Source of the DNA: TPA_inf: Saccharomyces
Lineage: Eukaryota
Direction of reading: 5' to 3'
Assembly (NCBI GenBank): GCA_000146045.2
Contig: BK006947.3
Location: 544,001-608,000 of the forward strand
DNA length: 64,000 bases
This document shows, in pieces, positions 2,405-22,427 of the stretch. The notes below the pieces were generated by a model. The model was not told where the DNA came from. It did no database searches and was given only the letters and a program-made list of their open reading frames with translations. Each line of letters starts with the position of its first letter. Position 1 is the first letter of the stretch. The position numbers and the translations under genes are program-made.

Positions 2405-2737
2405 GAAGACCTCTACTACACTTCAAAATGAAATACCCCTGCATCACCAGATTCATCAACCTAAACGTACAAGACGTATGAAACACGTATGAAACAGTTG
2501 TTGCGAAAAAAACAAGATTAAGTATTTTCAAAGCCCCGGTTGCCTTGATGAACCTAAACGTATAAATAGTTGAGCAATCAGTTTAGCTCCGAAGATCTAT
2601 GCTTCCACCCTTTAGTCAGATTTAGATCCTATATAGATTATATGGGATAAGTAACATTCCGTCAATCAAGCTGCTCTTCTGACAGGTATTAATATTGTTA
2701 AGACGGCTAGTATTGACTAACTTCATGACACAACCAC
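2405..2737 (+). repeat. Diverged sigma-like solo LTR (older copy) immediately abutting the intact sigma element.
   Basis: Blocks of similarity to the adjacent sigma occur in the same order, for example caaaatga.ata, ataaatag.tgagcaat.agtttag.tccga, gcttccacc.cttagt, and gataagtaacattccgt.aat. The right end, catgacacaacc-ac, resembles the sigma terminus, and the element is followed by the same ACCAC flank. Confidence 0.5.
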
Positions 2738-3077
2738 TGTTGTATCTCAAAATGAGATATGTCAGTATGACAATACGTCACCCTGAACGTTCATAAAACA
2801 CATATGAAACAACCTTATAACAAAACGAACAACATGAGACAAAACCCGACCTTCCCTAGCTGAACTACCCAAAGTATAAATGCCTGAACAATTAGTTTAG
2901 ATCCGAGATTCCGCGCTTCCACCACTTAGTATGATTCATATTTTATATAATATATAAGATAAGTAACATTCCGTGAATTAATCTGATAAACCGTTTTGAC
3001 AACTGGTTACTTCCCTAAGACTGTTTATATTAGGATTGTCAAGACACTCCGGTATTACTCGAGCCCGTAATACAACA
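2738..3077 (+). mobile_element. Ty3 sigma solo LTR, 340 bp, with TGTTGTAT...ATACAACA termini. It is flanked by a 5-bp target-site duplication ACCAC at 2733-2737 and 3078-3082, and lies 16 bp upstream of tRNA-Pro.
   Basis: The 8-bp inverted termini, the length and the internal sequence are characteristic of sigma. The position 16-19 bp upstream of a tRNA gene is the signature of Ty3 integration. Confidence 0.85.
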
Positions 3078-3093
3078 ACCACACGAAATAATC

Positions 3094-3196
3094 GGGCGTG
3101 TGGTCTAGTGGTATGATTCTCGCTTTGGGCGACTTCCTGCCTAAACAGGAAGACAAAGCATGCGAGAGGCCCTGGGTTCAATTCCCAGCTCGCCCC
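3094..3196 (+). tRNA. tP(UGG)N1: tRNA-Pro(UGG) with a 31-nt intron at 3130-3160. The exons are 3094-3129 and 3161-3196.
   Basis: GGGCGTGTGGTCTAGTGGTATGATTCTCGCTTTGGG ... TGCGAGAGGCCCTGGGTTCAATTCCCAGCTCGCCCC folds as a cloverleaf with anticodon UGG. A GGTTCAATTCC B-box is present. An identical second copy sits at 24115-24217. Confidence 0.9.
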
Positions 3197-3370
3197 GTTA
3201 TCTTTTTTCACCATCAGGGCGGAATTTTTTTGTTTAGCATCAATCAACCTAACCTCTCATGCTTCTCCAAGCTGAAAGAAGTAAACTCACTCTATGTACG
3301 TGTTGCAACATATATCTGCCAAAAGAATGAAAGTAGGTTCAGAACAAACAGATTGAAAGGAGACCAGTAA
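3113..3370 (+). CDS. Small ORF overlapping the tRNA-Pro gene. It may correspond to a putative or uncharacterised small ORF in the reference annotation, and is probably not a real protein-coding gene.
   Basis: The ORF track shows a 90-aa frame at 3098-3370 with an internal Met at 3113. Its N-terminal half is simply the tRNA sequence translated. A second copy (24119-24406) diverges exactly where the tRNA ends. Confidence 0.15.
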   Translation: MILALGDFLPKQEDKACERPWVQFPARPVIFFHHQGGIFLFSINQPNLSCFSKLKEVNSLYVRVATYICQKNESRFRTNRLKGDQ

Positions 3371-4099
3371 AACTATATGGGGGGGGTTGTTCTTCCCGCC
3401 TCCTTCTGGGATTATGAAGACGCGCTGATCTGCTATAGTTCAACGTCCTTTTCGCTTACTATTTCTGGTAAGAAATATAAGGAATTCTCGGATTAATTAC
3501 TTTTCTCGAAAGGGGATTCCGAACACCTACCGGAAAAAAATAGCAGCCCTTAAGGGGAGAGTACGGCTCTTGGCATGACGGGAGGCAGGACAGCACTAAA
3601 GGCAGACTAGTCACTGAGCGCTCCAAGTTGGGTATGATAGTATCTTCAAGTTTTGGTCGAGTAGCTATTCCTCTTCTTCAAAGCCACTTACGCTTCGCCC
3701 AATAATGTCATGATTTACAAATAAACCTTCCTCTCCGAACCCTTAAAAGTAGGCAAATTGAGAAAATTTTTTGCTCGTCTTTTTTTCTCTCGTTTCGATT
3801 ACCTTATTGGGAACTTCTCGAAGAACTCGGCGAAGAGGTCCAGAGGAAGATTACTGACTATCATCAAGCCTTGTTTCTTTTGGCCTCTTCAGTAAGCTGC
3901 AAATGCAGTATTGGCTTTTTTAAAAAAGAAAAAGAGAAGGAAAGCGGAAACTAGTCTTGTTGCTCTTCTAGTGCAGTTGTTGTTTGTTCATTTGTTTCTT
4001 AATAACAGTCAACGAGAAAACTTGCGCGTGCAGTAGGAAAATAAGTAGCAAATTACATTACATGGAAAACTTGCAACCATCTGTGAGCACAGGCGACCA

Positions 4100-7987: not shown

Positions 7988-9379
7988 TGTGAGTAAACTT
8001 CACTGGGGATTTTGTTACGATAATGTACAATATACTTCAGATACTACAGCTTTCGGATGAATATTTACTAGAATGAATTACTACCTTAGATGTATATTTT
8101 GTATGAAAGCGTCATTACGCCAGTTGTATGTATTTTGTCGTCTGAGACGGCAGGTGATATATAAGTAAAATGGAAGTATAAACGAACAGAAAGCAATCAT
8201 TAACAATTTACTTATAGATTTCGACTAACATACGCATCGGTAGGATTAGATACCAGTTTTTGAAATCCAATTTTTCCCTCGTATATGGAATGTGCTGAGA
8301 GTTTTCCTCAGGGATATGCGTATCAACAAAAGAGAGGTGGTAATACATGCAATCATATAGCGGTTTGTTTCTTTAATACTATATGTTGTCACTTATAATC
8401 CTGTTATATTATTGATCTTTAGGTTTCAGCTGATCCTTCTAATATCCCTCTATTGGTTTCGTAATTCGTGTTATCCTTTAAGAAGATCCTAGCGACATAA
8501 TCATACTATCAACTGTTATGTTACCGTTTGGTGAACAGTTGGCTTTTTGCTCCGGCATTTTTGATTAAAAATAGGCTCTTGTTAAGCTACTGGAATTTTT
8601 CTATATTACCAGGCTACTCTTGATATGGCACCGGAATGTAATAGGAGTTACAAGACCATTTCAAGTTAAAGAAAAATTACTGGAAAAAGGGTAGTAACGT
8701 ACGTGGACGAAATAAATAAGAAGGACGTAAATTTAATACAAATGCACAAGTAAAGTTATCGGCTCCTATTCTTCACTAATTCCATGCATATTAAGAACTG
8801 CTGGAATAAGAATTGACCGTTGCTTATTGACTAGTGGCCATGTTACTAGTATACCTATCACACACAATGTAAGAAAGTGACATAAGCCATGAGATACAAT
8901 CTCAAATCTAGTAAAAGCCGAAATACAAGAACTGATGATGTAACAGAGTAATGCATAACAACGTGCAATGCAAAGGAAGAAATAATAGTGTTATTACGTA
9001 GGACATTGATTTCCTGTCATGACTATTATATCCTCAATGAGCGCATATAATGCATTCTGTATATTCAATAATACCACCTTATCAAATAACGAATACCATC
9101 GATTATCAGTAAATTCATGTATCACTCGCGTAAATTCTGAAATTCAGCCCACTAGGAAGACGTTTATATCAGTTTACTTTTGTACAAGTGACTTATTGCA
9201 AGCAATTTGTACGAAATATGCTTACACTTTTCATTAGTAAAAGAACCAACCACCCATCATTAACATCTTTTTATTTTTTATCCTTATCGTGTAAAAAAAA
9301 CTTAAGAATAGACATCCTGGTGACGCATATCGACGAAAGCACACAACAGCGTCAAAAATTGATTAAAAGGTAAGTTATC

Positions 9380-16692: not shown

Positions 16693-16765
16693 TGCTTCCA
16701 ATCGGATTTGAACCGATGATCTCCACATTACTAGTGTGGCGCCTTACCAACTTGGCCATAGAAGC
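16693..16765 (-). tRNA. tT(AGU)N1: tRNA-Thr(AGU).
   Basis: The reverse complement reads GCTTCTATGGCCAAGTTGGTAAGGCGCCACACTAGTAATGTGGAGATCATCGGTTCAAATCCGATTGGAAGCA. It has anticodon AGU and a GGTTCAAATCC B-box. Confidence 0.9.
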
Positions 16766-17479
16766 CCGTTATTACGGTCTGTGATCCAGCAAATGTCAGA
16801 TATAACGAATTGAAGTTGCTTTTCCCATCAATGTTTGTCAAGTTGAAACGCTGTAGCACACACTAAGCATTAACGACTATATTACAAGTAAAGCATCAAA
16901 TGATTACTTAAAAGAGTAATCGCAAACTATATTGAAGTTGGCAAAGGCACATGATCCAAATGGTAACGATAACAACATATATGAAAAGTAGTGTTCTAGG
17001 AAACTTCGATAGGGGAGAAAGTACGTAAAAAAAATAATTTTGAGTTGGATTCGAAGTTCCATTAATATCTTGGATAATTAAGTTTGCTGCGTGAGAGACA
17101 GGCAGATTCGGCTTCACAGGAATAAACTCCTATAATTTAAAGGAACTTGTTAGTGTTAGCACTATAAGTAAGAAAAAGTAAATTCTGGCAGTGTTGCTTT
17201 TAATCGCAATAATATTTGATTTACATTCAAACAGTTTCATATACCTCTTTGATAGAACATATTTGCATATGTGTTTATTTGTTTTTTATTTTTTTTTGAT
17301 TACTTCTTTTCAAAAACTAAATGTGAACAAAGAAGAAAAAGGAGTATAAAAGAATAAATAATAGCGGTATTACGTGTGTTGGAAAAAGAATCATAGATCG
17401 TCAATGGACTAGTATTTGTATTACCAGTATTATTATAATATGGATCGTAAGAAGATAACATAAAACATAGAAACAGTTG

Positions 17480-17606
17480 TCAAATCCTTGCACAATTCTA
17501 ACATTCATTATCCTATTACATTATCAATCCTTGCATTTCAACTTTCCATCAAATTTAATGATTTGTTTTCAATCTTTATGTCTTCTTTTTACATCGCATA
17601 TGATAC
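17480..17606 (-). repeat. Fragment of an old, diverged Ty1/Ty2 delta LTR (left part). It is interrupted by the tau insertion and continues at 17978-18032 and 23993-24000.
   Basis: cattatcctattacattatcaatccttgcatttca...catcgcatatgata aligns to the Ty2 LTR sequence cattgatcctattacattatcaatccttgcgtttca...caccgtatatgata. The alignment resumes after the tau element with ctagtattacaaataatactaaacagatgatg. Confidence 0.55.
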
Positions 17607-17977
17607 TGTTGGAACGAGAGTAATTAATAGTAACATGAGTTGCTATGGTAACAATCTAATGCTTACATCGTATATTAATGTACAACTCGTATACGTTTAA
17701 GTGTGATTGCGCCTATTGCAGAAGGAATGTTAAACGAGAAGCTCAGACAATACTGAAGCTGTGTTAAAGATCTATTAGTTGAACATGATATGGTAGGTAC
17801 ATATATGAGGAATATGAGTCGTCACATCAATGTATAGTAACTACCGGAATCACTATTATATTGGTCATGATTAATATGACCAATCGGCGTGTGTTTTATA
17901 TACCTCTCTTATTTAGTATAAGAAGATCAGTACTCACTTCTTCATTAATACTAATTTTTAACCTCTAATTATCAACA
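17607..17977 (+). mobile_element. Solo LTR of 371 bp with TGTTG...CAACA termini and a perfect 5-bp target-site duplication GATAC (17602-17606 and 17978-17982). The length and termini fit a Ty4 tau element.
   Basis: Termini and TSD are read directly from the sequence. Family assignment to tau rests on the 371-bp length and the TGTTGGAACGAGAG start, and is from memory rather than alignment. Confidence 0.7.
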
Positions 17978-18386
17978 GATACCATGCTAGTATTACAAAT
18001 AATACTAAACAGATGATGTTAGAGTTTCATTCTGAAAAGAATGTGGATTTTGATGTAATTGTTGGGATTCCATTTTTTATAAGGCAATAATATTAGGTAT
18101 GTAGATATACTAGAAGTTCTCCTCGAGGATTTAGGAATCCATAAAAGGGAATCTGCAATTCTATACAATTCTATAAATATTATTATCATCATTTTATATG
18201 TTAATATTCATTGATCCTATTACATTATCAATCCTTGCGTTTCAGCTTCCACTAATTTAGATGACTATTTCTCATCATTTGCGTCATCTTCTAACACCGT
18301 ATATGATAATATACTAGTAACGTAAATACTAGTTAGTAGATGATAGTTGATTTTTATTCCAACATACCACCCATAATGTAATAGAT

Positions 18387-21300
18387 CTAATGAATCCATT
18401 TGTTAGTTAATAGTTTAAATGTTTTTATCGGAAGAGGTTTTGTCATCACATCAGCAATGTTCTTCTTGGTCTCGATGTAGTATACGTATAAATTATTACC
18501 TGATACTTCATCTCTAAGTCTCATTGCCTTTGTGCCAAAAAATCTGTTTCTAAATTTCTCTTCATTTGTAGACTTAATTATACTGATCGTTGATCTACTA
18601 TCAGTAAGTAAGCCTTTAATAATTGGTTTCTTGTTAAGTTCTTGCACAAGGTGACTGAGGTTATTCAATAGCGGAATAGCTTCACTGACTGCGTGTATTT
18701 CTGCTTCTGTAGTTGAAGTGCATGTTAACGAAGCCTTTGTCGACTTTCCTCCAATCACTTTTCCGTTGAGTAGGAAAATGTTACCAATTTGTGACTTGTA
18801 ATATGGTTGGTTACCATATGAAGCATCGCTTATTGCGACTAGTTTATTATCTGGCTTGGTAGGTTTGTTTTTGTGCCATATTAATTGTTTATCTCTAGTG
18901 TCCCACATGAATTGTATTAACTCATATGTCATGTCTAAAACTTGCCTAGAGGGGAATAGTATATGTTGAGCAAGTGTGTTGATGTAGTATAGTAAGTCAA
19001 ATCTAAATTTATATCCAACATATGAAGCTAGACCAATCAACTTTTGCATTTCATGTACTTTCTCTTTGTATTCATCTTCATCTATTTCTAGTTCATCCTG
19101 GTCTATATAATGACCTGGTTGACCTGGAGCTCTAAGTTTCTTTCCTTTTGGGTTCAAAGGTACGTTTAGTTTGGGTAATTTTTCTGTCAAGGATTTTTCC
19201 ATACCTAATTTCATGTACTTGCTTCTTTGATATTTGATCTCTAATCCAAGTATGTCGTACTGAATGTCGTTATCACTTTCACCCAGATTTATTATCTTTG
19301 TATCGTATTGTTTCTTGAGTGTTGTTATGATTTTCTTATTTGCATTTAAGTCTTTGCTGAATAATATCATATCATCAACGAATAAGCAAATTGTTACTTG
19401 ACTATTTTTAAATACGCATGACCATCCGCGAACTTCTTGCATGTCGCAACAATTTATTAAATATGATTTAATGGTTTCATACCAGTTTGCACCACTTTGT
19501 TTCAAACCATAGAGTGATTTTCTCAAACGTAGTAATTTATCATTCAAACCTAAATGTGGTGGAGGTCTTATGTATAATTCTTCTTTGATATCAGCATATA
19601 AGTAAGCAGAGGATATGTCCAGCTGTGTGATATAATAGTCGTTGTCTAATGCGATTGACAGTGACGTCATCAGTGCATAGTGATGTACGGTATTGGATTG
19701 CATATCAGAATCATATGTATCGGGGTGTTGAATGTCGCCTCTTGCAACAAATCTAGCTTTGTGTGTACCATCACGTTTCTTGTTAAATATAAACATTGAG
19801 TTTATTACTTTTTTAGGATCTATGTCATTTCTATCATAATATTTGTTTGTATCCCAAGTGTTCATTTTCAATAGTTGGCTAATTTCTTTATGATAAGCTT
19901 CAACATATCTGTCTTTTTCTTTGTTGTCTTTATTATAAGTAATTGCTTCATCATATCTTAAGGTCGTTCGAACTGGTTTGATCGATTTCACTCCTTTTAT
20001 TGCTGCAATTAAATTTATGCGTTTCTTCGATCTTGGTGGTTCCAGACTTCTCATATTCTTATTATTCCATGTGTCTCGGGATACCTCAATTTCAGTTTCA
20101 TTATCTTCTAATGATCTTTTCTTACTTTTGGTAGTAGTCAGAACATTAGAATCATCCATACCACCCAAACTGGAATTAGTCTGACGAGAGTGTATGTGTG
20201 GAATATCTTTTGAAACATCAGAAGTGTCCGTAGGAGATTGATGGGTTAAGTCAGGAAGTGGGAGGTCGTCAAGAATAGAATCAGCCGTAACATTTTTTGA
20301 GGATTTGTCAGGCATTATATTAGGAGTCGCATGGTCAGAAGATCGATATTCTGGCGGATCCGTATCAATGGAGGGTGTATTATCACATACAGCCTTTGTT
20401 TCTATGGAGATGATGGGAGTAGTGGATTCACTGTTGGACGAACGGTCATCTATTGAGGGCGTACTATTTGTAGTCCTGTATTTGATATTTGTATCACTAT
20501 TTCGTTGAATATATGGTTCCTCCGTACCACCCAAACGTGTAGTTTTGATGTTTTCAAGTCCATAATTAACTCTATCCTGTGAGGTCAAATCAATCATATC
20601 ATTGGGACTACCAGGTCGCTTTTGGTTTCGTGCAGTGAAGGTAGACGAGTGTCTAGGTGAAGTAGTATCTGATTCAACGGTACCAACCATTTCGGTACTC
20701 TCTTTATTAATGATATGGGGTGTACGAGATCGTATAGTAGATGGAAGAATATTGTATTCAGATATGTCGGCATCAACTTCTTTTGGTGCACGTACTTTTT
20801 GGACTGGTTCCTTGTCTAATTGTAAAGGGTTTATTGATTGGGACGAGAAGTCGTTCACTAGAGGATCAGAGTTTATTTCAATCTCCGATTGATAGTCATG
20901 ATCAGATTCTGTATTTTGATCATATGACTGCTCCGTTTCATTTTGTTCAATAAAAGATTGGTTATGGGCTGTTAAACGATTGAGATCATCATCAAAAGTG
21001 AGTGTATCGTAGTCGAACTGGTCCAATTTCGTTTGCTTGTTTTGTAATATAACGTAATTGGTAGTATCTACTGTCTTTTTTAATGATGGAAGATAGATAA
21101 TATAGCCATAAGAGTTTCGTGACGGATGTAAGGCGTAACCTGGAATGCCACGAGGATGTATTTTCGAGTCGGGATTATGGTTGTTAACTATAACCGGTTG
21201 ACCGAAAGGTAGTATAGTAGTAATGTCCAGTCCAGCTAAACCTGCATGTTGTCTTGCGGATTTATCGTTTTTTGGTGAGACTAATGAATTTCTGATTATA

Positions 21301-22427
21301 GTAGAAAATTCGACTGCTGAGAACCATAGATGATTTGGTAGACCACTGCAATGAAGCAGTGTGCGACAATCGTTTAATAAAGTACGATTTAATCGTTCAG
21401 CGACACCGTGTGCTCTAGAATCTGCCGTGGTTGTATAGCATGCAGTAATACCTCTGTTCGTAAAGAACTTATGAAGAGTTTTGTTAGTGTACTCGGAGCC
21501 ACGATCCATCTGGATAACTAGAACGCGAGCATTGAATTGGTTCTTAATAAATGCTAATATCGATGTAAAAACATTGAGGATAGATTCTTCACGACGGTCG
21601 TGTAATGGGTACACCCATTGGAATCTGGTTTTCTCATCTGTAAACGATATAAAGTAAGAAGGTGCACTTTTCGGTAAGTGATGTACAGGACCAAATATAT
21701 CGGTATGCAAGTACTGAAAAGGCTCATATGATTCTTGGTACTTTAGTCGTGATCCTTTGACATGTCTATGTTTCGTGCTTTTGCCGATTAGACAGTCAGG
21801 ACATTGATATGTGCTAGCGTTAGACCATTCAATATCCGATTCCTTCAAATATGTAACTGCATTCTTCTTAAGAGACTTCTGAATACTTCGGAAGTTAGCA
21901 TGTCCAAGCATTCGATGTATTAACGGATATGGATATTTATTTACGCTTTTGCTTTTGTTGACGTTGTTTATTGTTAGCTTTGAAATGTGCGAAGGAATTA
22001 GGTATTTTTTAGATAACCAGTAAAAGTCTCCATGTTTGACTATGGGAGCTAGTACTGTACCATCCGATCTTTCTAAAGTGTTTCTGGTAAAGCAGGCAGT
22101 AATATTTTGATTAGCCAGCTCACTCAAACTTAATAGATCATAGGCTATGTTTGGTGTGTGTAGTGCTTTTATTGATGTTTTGGTGCCGTTCTGAAAGTTG
22201 AAGTGAAGATTACCAATGGCATTTATAGGAATGTCTTGTTTTTGAGCATCGACTATGTTTATTTCAGAATTGGGTGTTGCATGGTGTAAATAATGGGCTG
22301 ATCTGACAAGCGTTTGCGAAGCTCCTGAATCAATAAGAAGGTGATCAGGTAGTTCGTCATTCGAGTCTACTGTGTGTGTTGGCTTAGATTCTTTCTGTTG
22401 CTGGCCTAAGACTAAGTTCGTTGTCAT
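18387..22427 (-). CDS. TYB: Ty2 TYB (pol: protease, integrase, reverse transcriptase, RNase H). It is normally expressed only as a Gag-Pol fusion through +1 ribosomal frameshifting.
   Basis: 1346-aa continuous frame with the DSGAS protease motif, an integrase HHCC zinc-binding motif/DDE region, and the YVDDM reverse-transcriptase motif. It ends just before the PPT. Confidence 0.8.

Follow-up and report, generated by a model that had tools for sequence, protein, structure and literature searches.

Upstream of the proline tRNA gene tP(UGG)N1 of Saccharomyces cerevisiae, two solo long terminal repeats (LTRs) are arranged head to tail, and these most likely go back to two independent integrations of Ty3-superfamily elements, far apart in time, into the same 5-bp target before the gene. 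From comparison among strains and species, both elements can be identified and assigned to families, and the sequence in which they arrived, the target of the younger one and the empty site of an outgroup are established. The analysis covered a window of 64,000 nucleotides of the S288c genome (contig BK006947.3, positions 544,001 to 608,000 of the forward strand), and a blastn search across the whole of it returned no further copies of either LTR.

The tRNA-Pro gene and its 5′ flank

The locus is composed of the following features, given in window coordinates:

2409..2413, + strand: ACCTC, putative left copy of the target-site duplication of the older insertion, directly 5′ of the LTR start
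2414..2732, + strand: older degenerate solo LTR of the Ty3p lineage (YNLWsigma2, chrXIV_s349), 319 bp, predicted termini TA...CA
2733..2737, + strand: ACCAC, left duplication copy of the younger Ty3 and probable right copy of the older element; single in old-only alleles
2738..3077, + strand: young Ty3 sigma solo LTR (YNLWsigma3, chrXIV_s350), 340 bp, termini TGTTGTAT...ATACAACA
3078..3082, + strand: ACCAC, right duplication copy of the younger Ty3, at −16..−12 from the mature tRNA 5′ end, read from the sequence
3083..3093, + strand: acgaaataatc, remaining 11-nt 5′ leader from the target to the mature tRNA start, colinear in four other species
3094..3196, + strand: tP(UGG)N1, tRNA-Pro(UGG) gene with intron, Rfam RF00005

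The tRNA gene was identified with Rfam RF00005, which matches 3094–3196 on the + strand over the full length of the model (48.7 bits, E = 4e-9). In this match, the anticodon is UGG (Pro), with a 34-nt insertion after the anticodon-loop start CUCGC-UUUG; ARAGORN in bacterial mode did not report this intron-containing tRNA-Pro. [quoted passage not shown] Here, the spacing from the sigma end to GGGCGTG at 3094, as read from the sequence, is 16 nt (3078–3093), which places the element within this range. The preliminary description of the locus, which had reported a 340-bp sigma at 2738–3077 flanked by ACCAC on both sides and ending 16 nt before the tRNA, is thus confirmed by sequence reading and Rfam. 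The 3083–3093 leader presumably contains the Pol III transcription start, the position of which is taken from the literature (PMC5911963, PMC6673722).

Family and age of the two LTRs

The younger element is in every respect a modern Ty3 LTR. It has TG...CA ends and the 8-bp inverted repeat TGTTGTAT/ATACAACA expected for Ty3 sigma, and it is identical at 339 of 340 positions to the 5′ LTRs of the full-length Ty3 elements chrIX_u11 and chrVII_u14, the sole difference from both being located at 2992. Letter for letter, it equals chrXIV_s350 (sacCer2 546739–547078), and 2423–2684 equals chrXIV_s349 (sacCer2 546424–546685); hence, window coordinates are sacCer2 chromosome XIV coordinates minus 544001. 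In the annotation of Carr et al. (2012; PMC3511429), chrXIV_s350+_TY3 is listed as YNLWsigma3, a solo LTR of the “active” short-branch clade, and is scored as present in 4 of 20 SGRP strains.

Further alleles were obtained from assemblies fetched via the neighbouring BOP3 protein, comprising ten S. cerevisiae loci and, subsequently, three assemblies with other BOP3 alleles. YNLWsigma3 is present in two of these 13 assemblies, and the remaining 11 carry an old-only allele with one ACCAC (...catgacacaACCACacgaaataatcGGGCG). Specifically, eight of the ten loci fetched initially contain the old LTR alone, followed by a single ACCAC (...cttcatgacacaACCACacgaaataatcGGGCG), and all three later assemblies are likewise old-only. 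Measured from an upstream anchor, the tRNA lies 358–360 bp away in the eight old-only loci (359 bp in six of them) versus 704 bp in the window. Since the old-only allele is shorter by 345 bp, i.e., the 340 bp of the LTR plus 5 bp, and retains a single ACCAC, this pentamer is a genuine Ty3 target-site duplication, as the preliminary description had proposed. The old-only allele preserves the target exactly as it was before the young Ty3 arrived, and YNLWsigma3, still polymorphic among strains, inserted recently in the interval from the old LTR to the tRNA. The survey of strains for such alleles, which the preliminary description had suggested, is essentially already provided by the published SGRP scores of 4/20 for the younger versus 22/22 for the older element.

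The older element aligns with sigma over its whole length, at 68.9% identity in a global alignment (z = 32 against shuffles), and reaches 75.0% identity over 316 aligned positions (z = 40) with the S. paradoxus Ty3p reference LTR (AY198187). In blastn, the match extends over 246 bp (E = 5e-39) to Ty3p versus 122 bp (E = 1e-19) to sigma; within the window, the blastn core shared with sigma spans 122 bp at 75% identity (E = 4e-17). The old LTR and Ty3p have in common a duplicated GTATGAAACA motif (GTATGAAACAC-GTAYGAAACA), of which sigma contains one copy, without the duplication. The ratio of transitions to transversions is 58:21 for the old LTR versus Ty3p, 47:47 for the old LTR versus sigma, and 28:30 for sigma versus Ty3p; the substitutions of the old LTR relative to the Ty3p reference are, thus, strongly transition-biased (58 versus 21), unlike those in the comparisons with sigma.

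These identity figures agree with Carr et al. (2012; PMC3511429), whose Figures 2 and 5 place the Ty3p clade separately from Ty3. In their annotation, chrXIV_s349+_TY3_1p is YNLWsigma2, an inactive solo LTR fixed in 22 of 22 scored SGRP strains, formerly annotated as Ty3, which “corresponds to a copy of Ty3p”; this sister lineage is known from S. paradoxus. The old LTR is present in all 13 S. cerevisiae assemblies fetched. Judged by its alignments, the old element is, hence, a member of the Ty3p lineage and not a strict Ty3 sigma. Compared with the 262 bp of the RepeatMasker annotation, the LTR is here extended to 2414–2732, and its putative target-site duplication is added. It starts with TA, owing to a G to A change, and ends with CA only if the LTR terminates at 2732. 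Of the older sigma which the preliminary description had seen at 2405–2737, the alignment to sigma throughout its length stands, and so does its earlier arrival, to which the old-only alleles attest; its bounds, however, are 2414–2732, and it stems from Ty3p and not from Ty3 proper.

Given the head-to-tail arrangement in the same orientation, with a pentamer common to both elements at their junction, a tandem originating from a single event could be considered—by local duplication, by unequal crossing-over or by rearrangement of one element. Such an origin has practically no probability: the two LTRs, 69% identical (31% diverged), come from different lineages, only the older is fixed, the younger being confined to a minority of strains, and the young LTR matches active Ty3 at 339/340 positions. 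It is refuted by the old-only allele, with its one ACCAC in 11/13 assemblies, together with the divergence of the copies. Highly improbable, too, is a derived state of the sigma-less allele, in which the two-LTR state would be ancestral and YNLWsigma3 would have been lost repeatedly via recombination between the ACCAC copies. Both allele states do occur and sigma is flanked by a 5-bp direct repeat, but insertion is far more frequent than precise excision via a 5-bp repeat. Furthermore, sigma differs at one of 340 positions from active Ty3 and resides in the short-branch “active” clade of Carr et al.; it is carried by a minority of strains and by none of the assemblies retrieved via other BOP3 alleles. 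The reading of two separate integrations, the older one preceding the younger, holds.

Target sites of the two integrations

While the target of the younger Ty3 can be read from the old-only alleles, that of the older element has to be approached via its boundaries. An ungapped alignment to the 5′ ends of Ty3 and Ty3p puts the first base of the old LTR at 2414, with six mismatches (TACTACACTTCAAAATGA versus TGTTGTATCTCAAAATGA). The first 8 nt are unusually mutated (TACTACAC versus TGTTGTAT), with transitions throughout, and the left boundary at 2414 presupposes that this mutated stretch is free of indels. The first six mismatches all fall within the terminal 9 nt and are all transitions (TACTACACT versus TGTTGTATC). 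The pentamer in front of this boundary, ACCTC (2409–2413), matches ACCAC at four of five positions, for which the chance probability is approximately 0.019.

At the right end, the preliminary description had let the terminus ...catgacacaacc be followed by ACCAC, whereby three bases were counted twice; the actual sequence is ...catgacaca/ACCAC/tgttg, with ACC shared. If the LTR ends at 2732 (...GACACA), it would have a canonical CA terminus and be framed by the duplication ACCTC/ACCAC, located at −16..−12, i.e., at the target of the younger Ty3. This requires the loss of 3 nt, from ACAACA to ACA, in an ACA/ACA/ACC triplet-repeat context.

An outgroup with an empty site is provided by S. paradoxus CBS432 (L017), in which local alignment of the 700 bp preceding the orthologous tRNA gave no similarity to an LTR (z ~0). 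Its empty site reads ...aaaagACGTCataaaataataGGGCG / ...cttgaataaaagACGTCataaaataataGGGCG, with ACGTC at −16..−12 opposite ACCTC. When the S. cerevisiae flanks are joined at ACCTC + acgaaataatc, they align with S. paradoxus without a gap over the last 38 nt. The alignment score is 19 for an LTR end at 2732 versus 15 for an end at 2735, the latter needing a 3-nt gap; this is a modest advantage. The 12 nt adjoining the tRNA read C[A/T]TAAAATAAT[C/A] in S. paradoxus, S. uvarum, S. eubayanus and S. kudriavzevii, and CACGAAATAATC in S. cerevisiae, and this colinearity across species makes it unlikely that nucleotides were lost from the right flank in S. cerevisiae. The left-flank alignment is based on one close outgroup, S. 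paradoxus CBS432; orthologues from S. mikatae and S. jurei were not among the hits of the protein search, and in S. kudriavzevii, S. eubayanus and S. uvarum the left flank is too diverged to align, so that these species contribute to the 12-nt colinearity only.

The principal competing explanation is a near-miss, in which the old LTR would extend to 2735 (...ACAACC, the last base changed from A to C), end 13 nt from the tRNA and have its duplication at −13..−9. The younger Ty3 would then have integrated 3 bp further upstream, and ACCAC would combine the three terminal nucleotides of the old LTR with 2 nt of flank. This boundary results when the final 27 nt of the old element are aligned ungapped to the Ty3p and Ty3 ends (...GACACAACC versus ...ATACAACA), and Ty3 strand transfer is reported to occur over a range of 1–4 bp and not at a single position (PMC5911963). 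The near-miss is nevertheless rather unlikely, considering that the implied duplication, ACCTC versus ACACG, matches at two of five positions, that the LTR would end with CC instead of CA, and that a 13-nt spacing is atypical. In addition, it forces the 3-nt gap relative to S. paradoxus, though the 12 nt by the tRNA are colinear in five species, and the left flank plus duplication then agrees with S. paradoxus at about 6 of 10 positions, as opposed to 9 of 11 if both elements used the same site.

On the basis of the 4/5 duplication and the gap-free S. paradoxus alignment, it is, thus, quite probable that both integrations used the same 5 bp (−16..−12), a reading that draws on one outgroup and calls for the 3-nt loss at the old LTR end. 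The identical position claimed in the preliminary description is exact with regard to the younger target and, in all probability, applies to the older one. Under the same-site reading, the T of the S. paradoxus pentamer ACGTC is kept in the leftmost pentamer, and the other two have A; this would date the T-to-A change to after the first and before the second insertion.

An old-junction allele reading ...GACACAACAACCAC would prove the 3-nt loss. An allele keeping ...ACAACAACCAC at the old junction was not found in the three S. cerevisiae assemblies with other BOP3 alleles, the junction being the same in all of them. The last 60 bp of the old LTR are polymorphic among the assemblies, with gacaCaacc changed to gacaAaacc (L001), gacGg to gacTg-type changes (L002), a 1-nt insertion (L006) and catgac changed to caggac (L018); in L007, the anchor-to-tRNA distance is 1 nt shorter (358 bp). 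None of the variants in L001, L002, L006, L007 and L018 restores the ACAACA terminus.

Several other sequences were considered in the course of the comparison. A stretch of S. kudriavzevii about 330 bp upstream of the tRNA (“cctctactgaaaaatgaaat”) resembled an orthologous ancient LTR by eye and was rejected, with z ~0 in local alignment. The contig L011 (ENA ERZ922844, “synthetic metagenome”), tried as S. paradoxus outgroup, was discarded as chimeric. Around 2484–2495 of this contig, there is a junction, with 99.5% identity to S. cerevisiae up to the tRNA-Pro and, beginning with the tRNA, S. paradoxus-like sequence at ~91% identity; the two parts were apparently joined across the conserved tRNA during assembly, and the BOP3 protein P0002 of the contig clusters with S. 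paradoxus Bop3p. In S. arboricola H-6 (L014), a Ty3-type LTR 3′ end appears to be present at ~2458–2504, before the orthologous tRNA-Pro at 2521. Sigma positions 289–333 match −63..−24 there (z = 7.2; 0 of 200 shuffles reach the score), and the implied LTR end lies ~16–17 nt from the tRNA. If true, the same site would have been used independently in this species as well. Just upstream of this LTR end, a reverse-oriented fragment resembles a Ty1 delta by eye.

Proposed history and comparison with known Ty3 systems

According to the proposed history, a Ty3p-lineage element would have inserted at −16..−12 after the split from S. paradoxus, thereby duplicating an ACCTC-like pentamer. It would have been reduced to a solo LTR, become fixed and decayed; in the right-hand copy of the duplication, T would have changed to A, giving ACCAC, and the old LTR probably dropped one ACA of its ACAACA terminus. 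Much later, an active Ty3 would have integrated between the old LTR and the tRNA, its target being the old right-hand ACCAC, which was duplicated again. The young Ty3 would also have become a solo LTR, YNLWsigma3, which is still polymorphic. For both elements, LTR–LTR recombination is the presumed route to the solo LTR, and the 3-nt loss is, likewise, an inferred step.

The targeting mechanism that would account for this pattern is well described. From the A and B boxes within the gene, to which it binds, TFIIIC sets TFIIIB (Brf1–TBP–Bdp1) at a fixed upstream distance, regardless of the upstream sequence, and Brf1 and TBP are sufficient for Ty3 targeting (PMC6673722). The Ty3 intasome docks on TBP and Brf1 via the C-terminal domain and the chromodomain of the integrase (PMC8632968). 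Strand transfer has been located 2–3 bp upstream of the transcription start (literature including PMC8632968) or, for Ty3 integration at tRNA genes, 1–4 bp upstream of it, the start itself lying ~10 bp upstream of the mature end (PMC5911963). At the last position of the duplication (also given as position 4), C is preferred (PMC6673722), as is the case for ACCAC. Going by this general Ty3 biology, TFIIIB would play the same role at the tP(UGG)N1 locus, with the internal promoter of the gene as the probable anchor for its positioning. With the ruler anchored in the tRNA gene, a pre-existing upstream LTR leaves the target unshifted; the next element inserts on its gene-proximal side and displaces it by a further 345 bp.

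Taken in this manner, the locus is likely a two-layer fossil, in which the extinct Ty3p and modern Ty3, whose LTRs are ~18% diverged, would have used the same pair of phosphodiester bonds, and in which the pentamers ACCTC, ACCAC and ACCAC order the events as Ty3p insertion, T-to-A change and Ty3 insertion. If so, it would constitute sequence-level evidence that a nucleotide-precise, TFIIIB-anchored ruler was already in place in the common ancestor of Ty3 and Ty3p.

The LTRs, their families, the YNLWsigma3 polymorphism and the targeting mechanism have already been published, and the locus is a tidy case of a known mechanism. The modest addition made here is a nucleotide-level argument for the use of the same 5-bp target by Ty3p and modern Ty3, founded on the duplication around the older element together with the unoccupied site in S. 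paradoxus. YNLWsigma2 and YNLWsigma3 of SGD (annotation of Kim et al. 1998, re-analysed in PMC3511429) are the same sequences as those described here, and the text consulted in PMC3511429 contains no comment on the re-use of one target. As a teaching example, the locus illustrates that integration is measured from the internal promoter of the tRNA gene and not from the upstream DNA, and that insertions stack with the youngest nearest to the gene.

In its 5-bp duplication, 16-nt spacing, last-position C and independence from the upstream sequence, the locus resembles TFIIIB-directed Ty3 integration (PMC5911963, PMC8632968, PMC6673722). Unlike induced Ty3 insertions, it is a natural two-layer record with one layer from the extinct Ty3p; there is no mechanistic difference. 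Among known elements, the old LTR is closest to the S. paradoxus Ty3p of Fingerman et al. (2003), as cited in PMC5911963 and PMC3511429. PMC5911963 reports Ty3p ~6 bp ahead of the site where tRNA transcription begins; with this site preceding the mature end by ~10 bp, the spacing amounts to ~16 bp, as at tP(UGG)N1. Unlike the S. paradoxus Ty3p reference, the old LTR is 25% diverged, starts with TA and not TG, and is ~45 bp shorter.

Re-use of tRNA genes as such has precedents, and Patterson et al. (2019; PMC6673722) counted 36 tDNAs with pre-existing Ty3 insertions. To place the pair among its counterparts in S288c, LTR neighbours were surveyed in all five parts of the GFF of Carr et al., the pairs being compared by annotation. 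Only two directly adjacent pairs of Ty3-type LTRs are found, of which the chrXIV pair alone is in the same orientation; in the other pair, chrXVI s426+ (Ty3) and s427- (Ty3p), the LTRs are 47 bp apart and in opposite orientation. Three further Ty3/Ty3p pairs are split by a Ty1 or Ty2 LTR (chrVIII s233/s235, chrXI s273/s275 and chrXIV s359/s361), and 5 of the 15 Ty3p relics in S288c lie beside a Ty3 LTR. These neighbours all show the repeated use of one tDNA by Ty3-type elements. The rarity of so clean a record, which the preliminary description had emphasized, holds insofar as this is the cleanest case among the S288c pairs; the phenomenon itself is not new.

Downstream of the LTRs, an 85-aa ORF (3113–3370, + strand, within the ORF 3098–3370) begins with an ATG within the tRNA-Pro gene, and several S. 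cerevisiae assemblies annotate it as a gene, e.g., at 2015–2272 in L001. It has no Pfam match and is presumably the dubious or uncharacterised SGD ORF YNL042W-B. A run of eight G at 3380–3387, ~185 bp 3′ of the tRNA gene, is conspicuous in the AT-rich intergenic region and otherwise unremarkable. Further into the window, File S3 of Carr et al., with converted coordinates, annotates Ty1 LTR fragments, a Ty4 LTR and a full-length Ty2 at ~8281–8481, 8799–9127, 17377–17977 and 18033–23992; the full-length Ty2 is chrXIV_u30, of the YNLCTy2 type, near the tRNA-Thr at 16693–16765.
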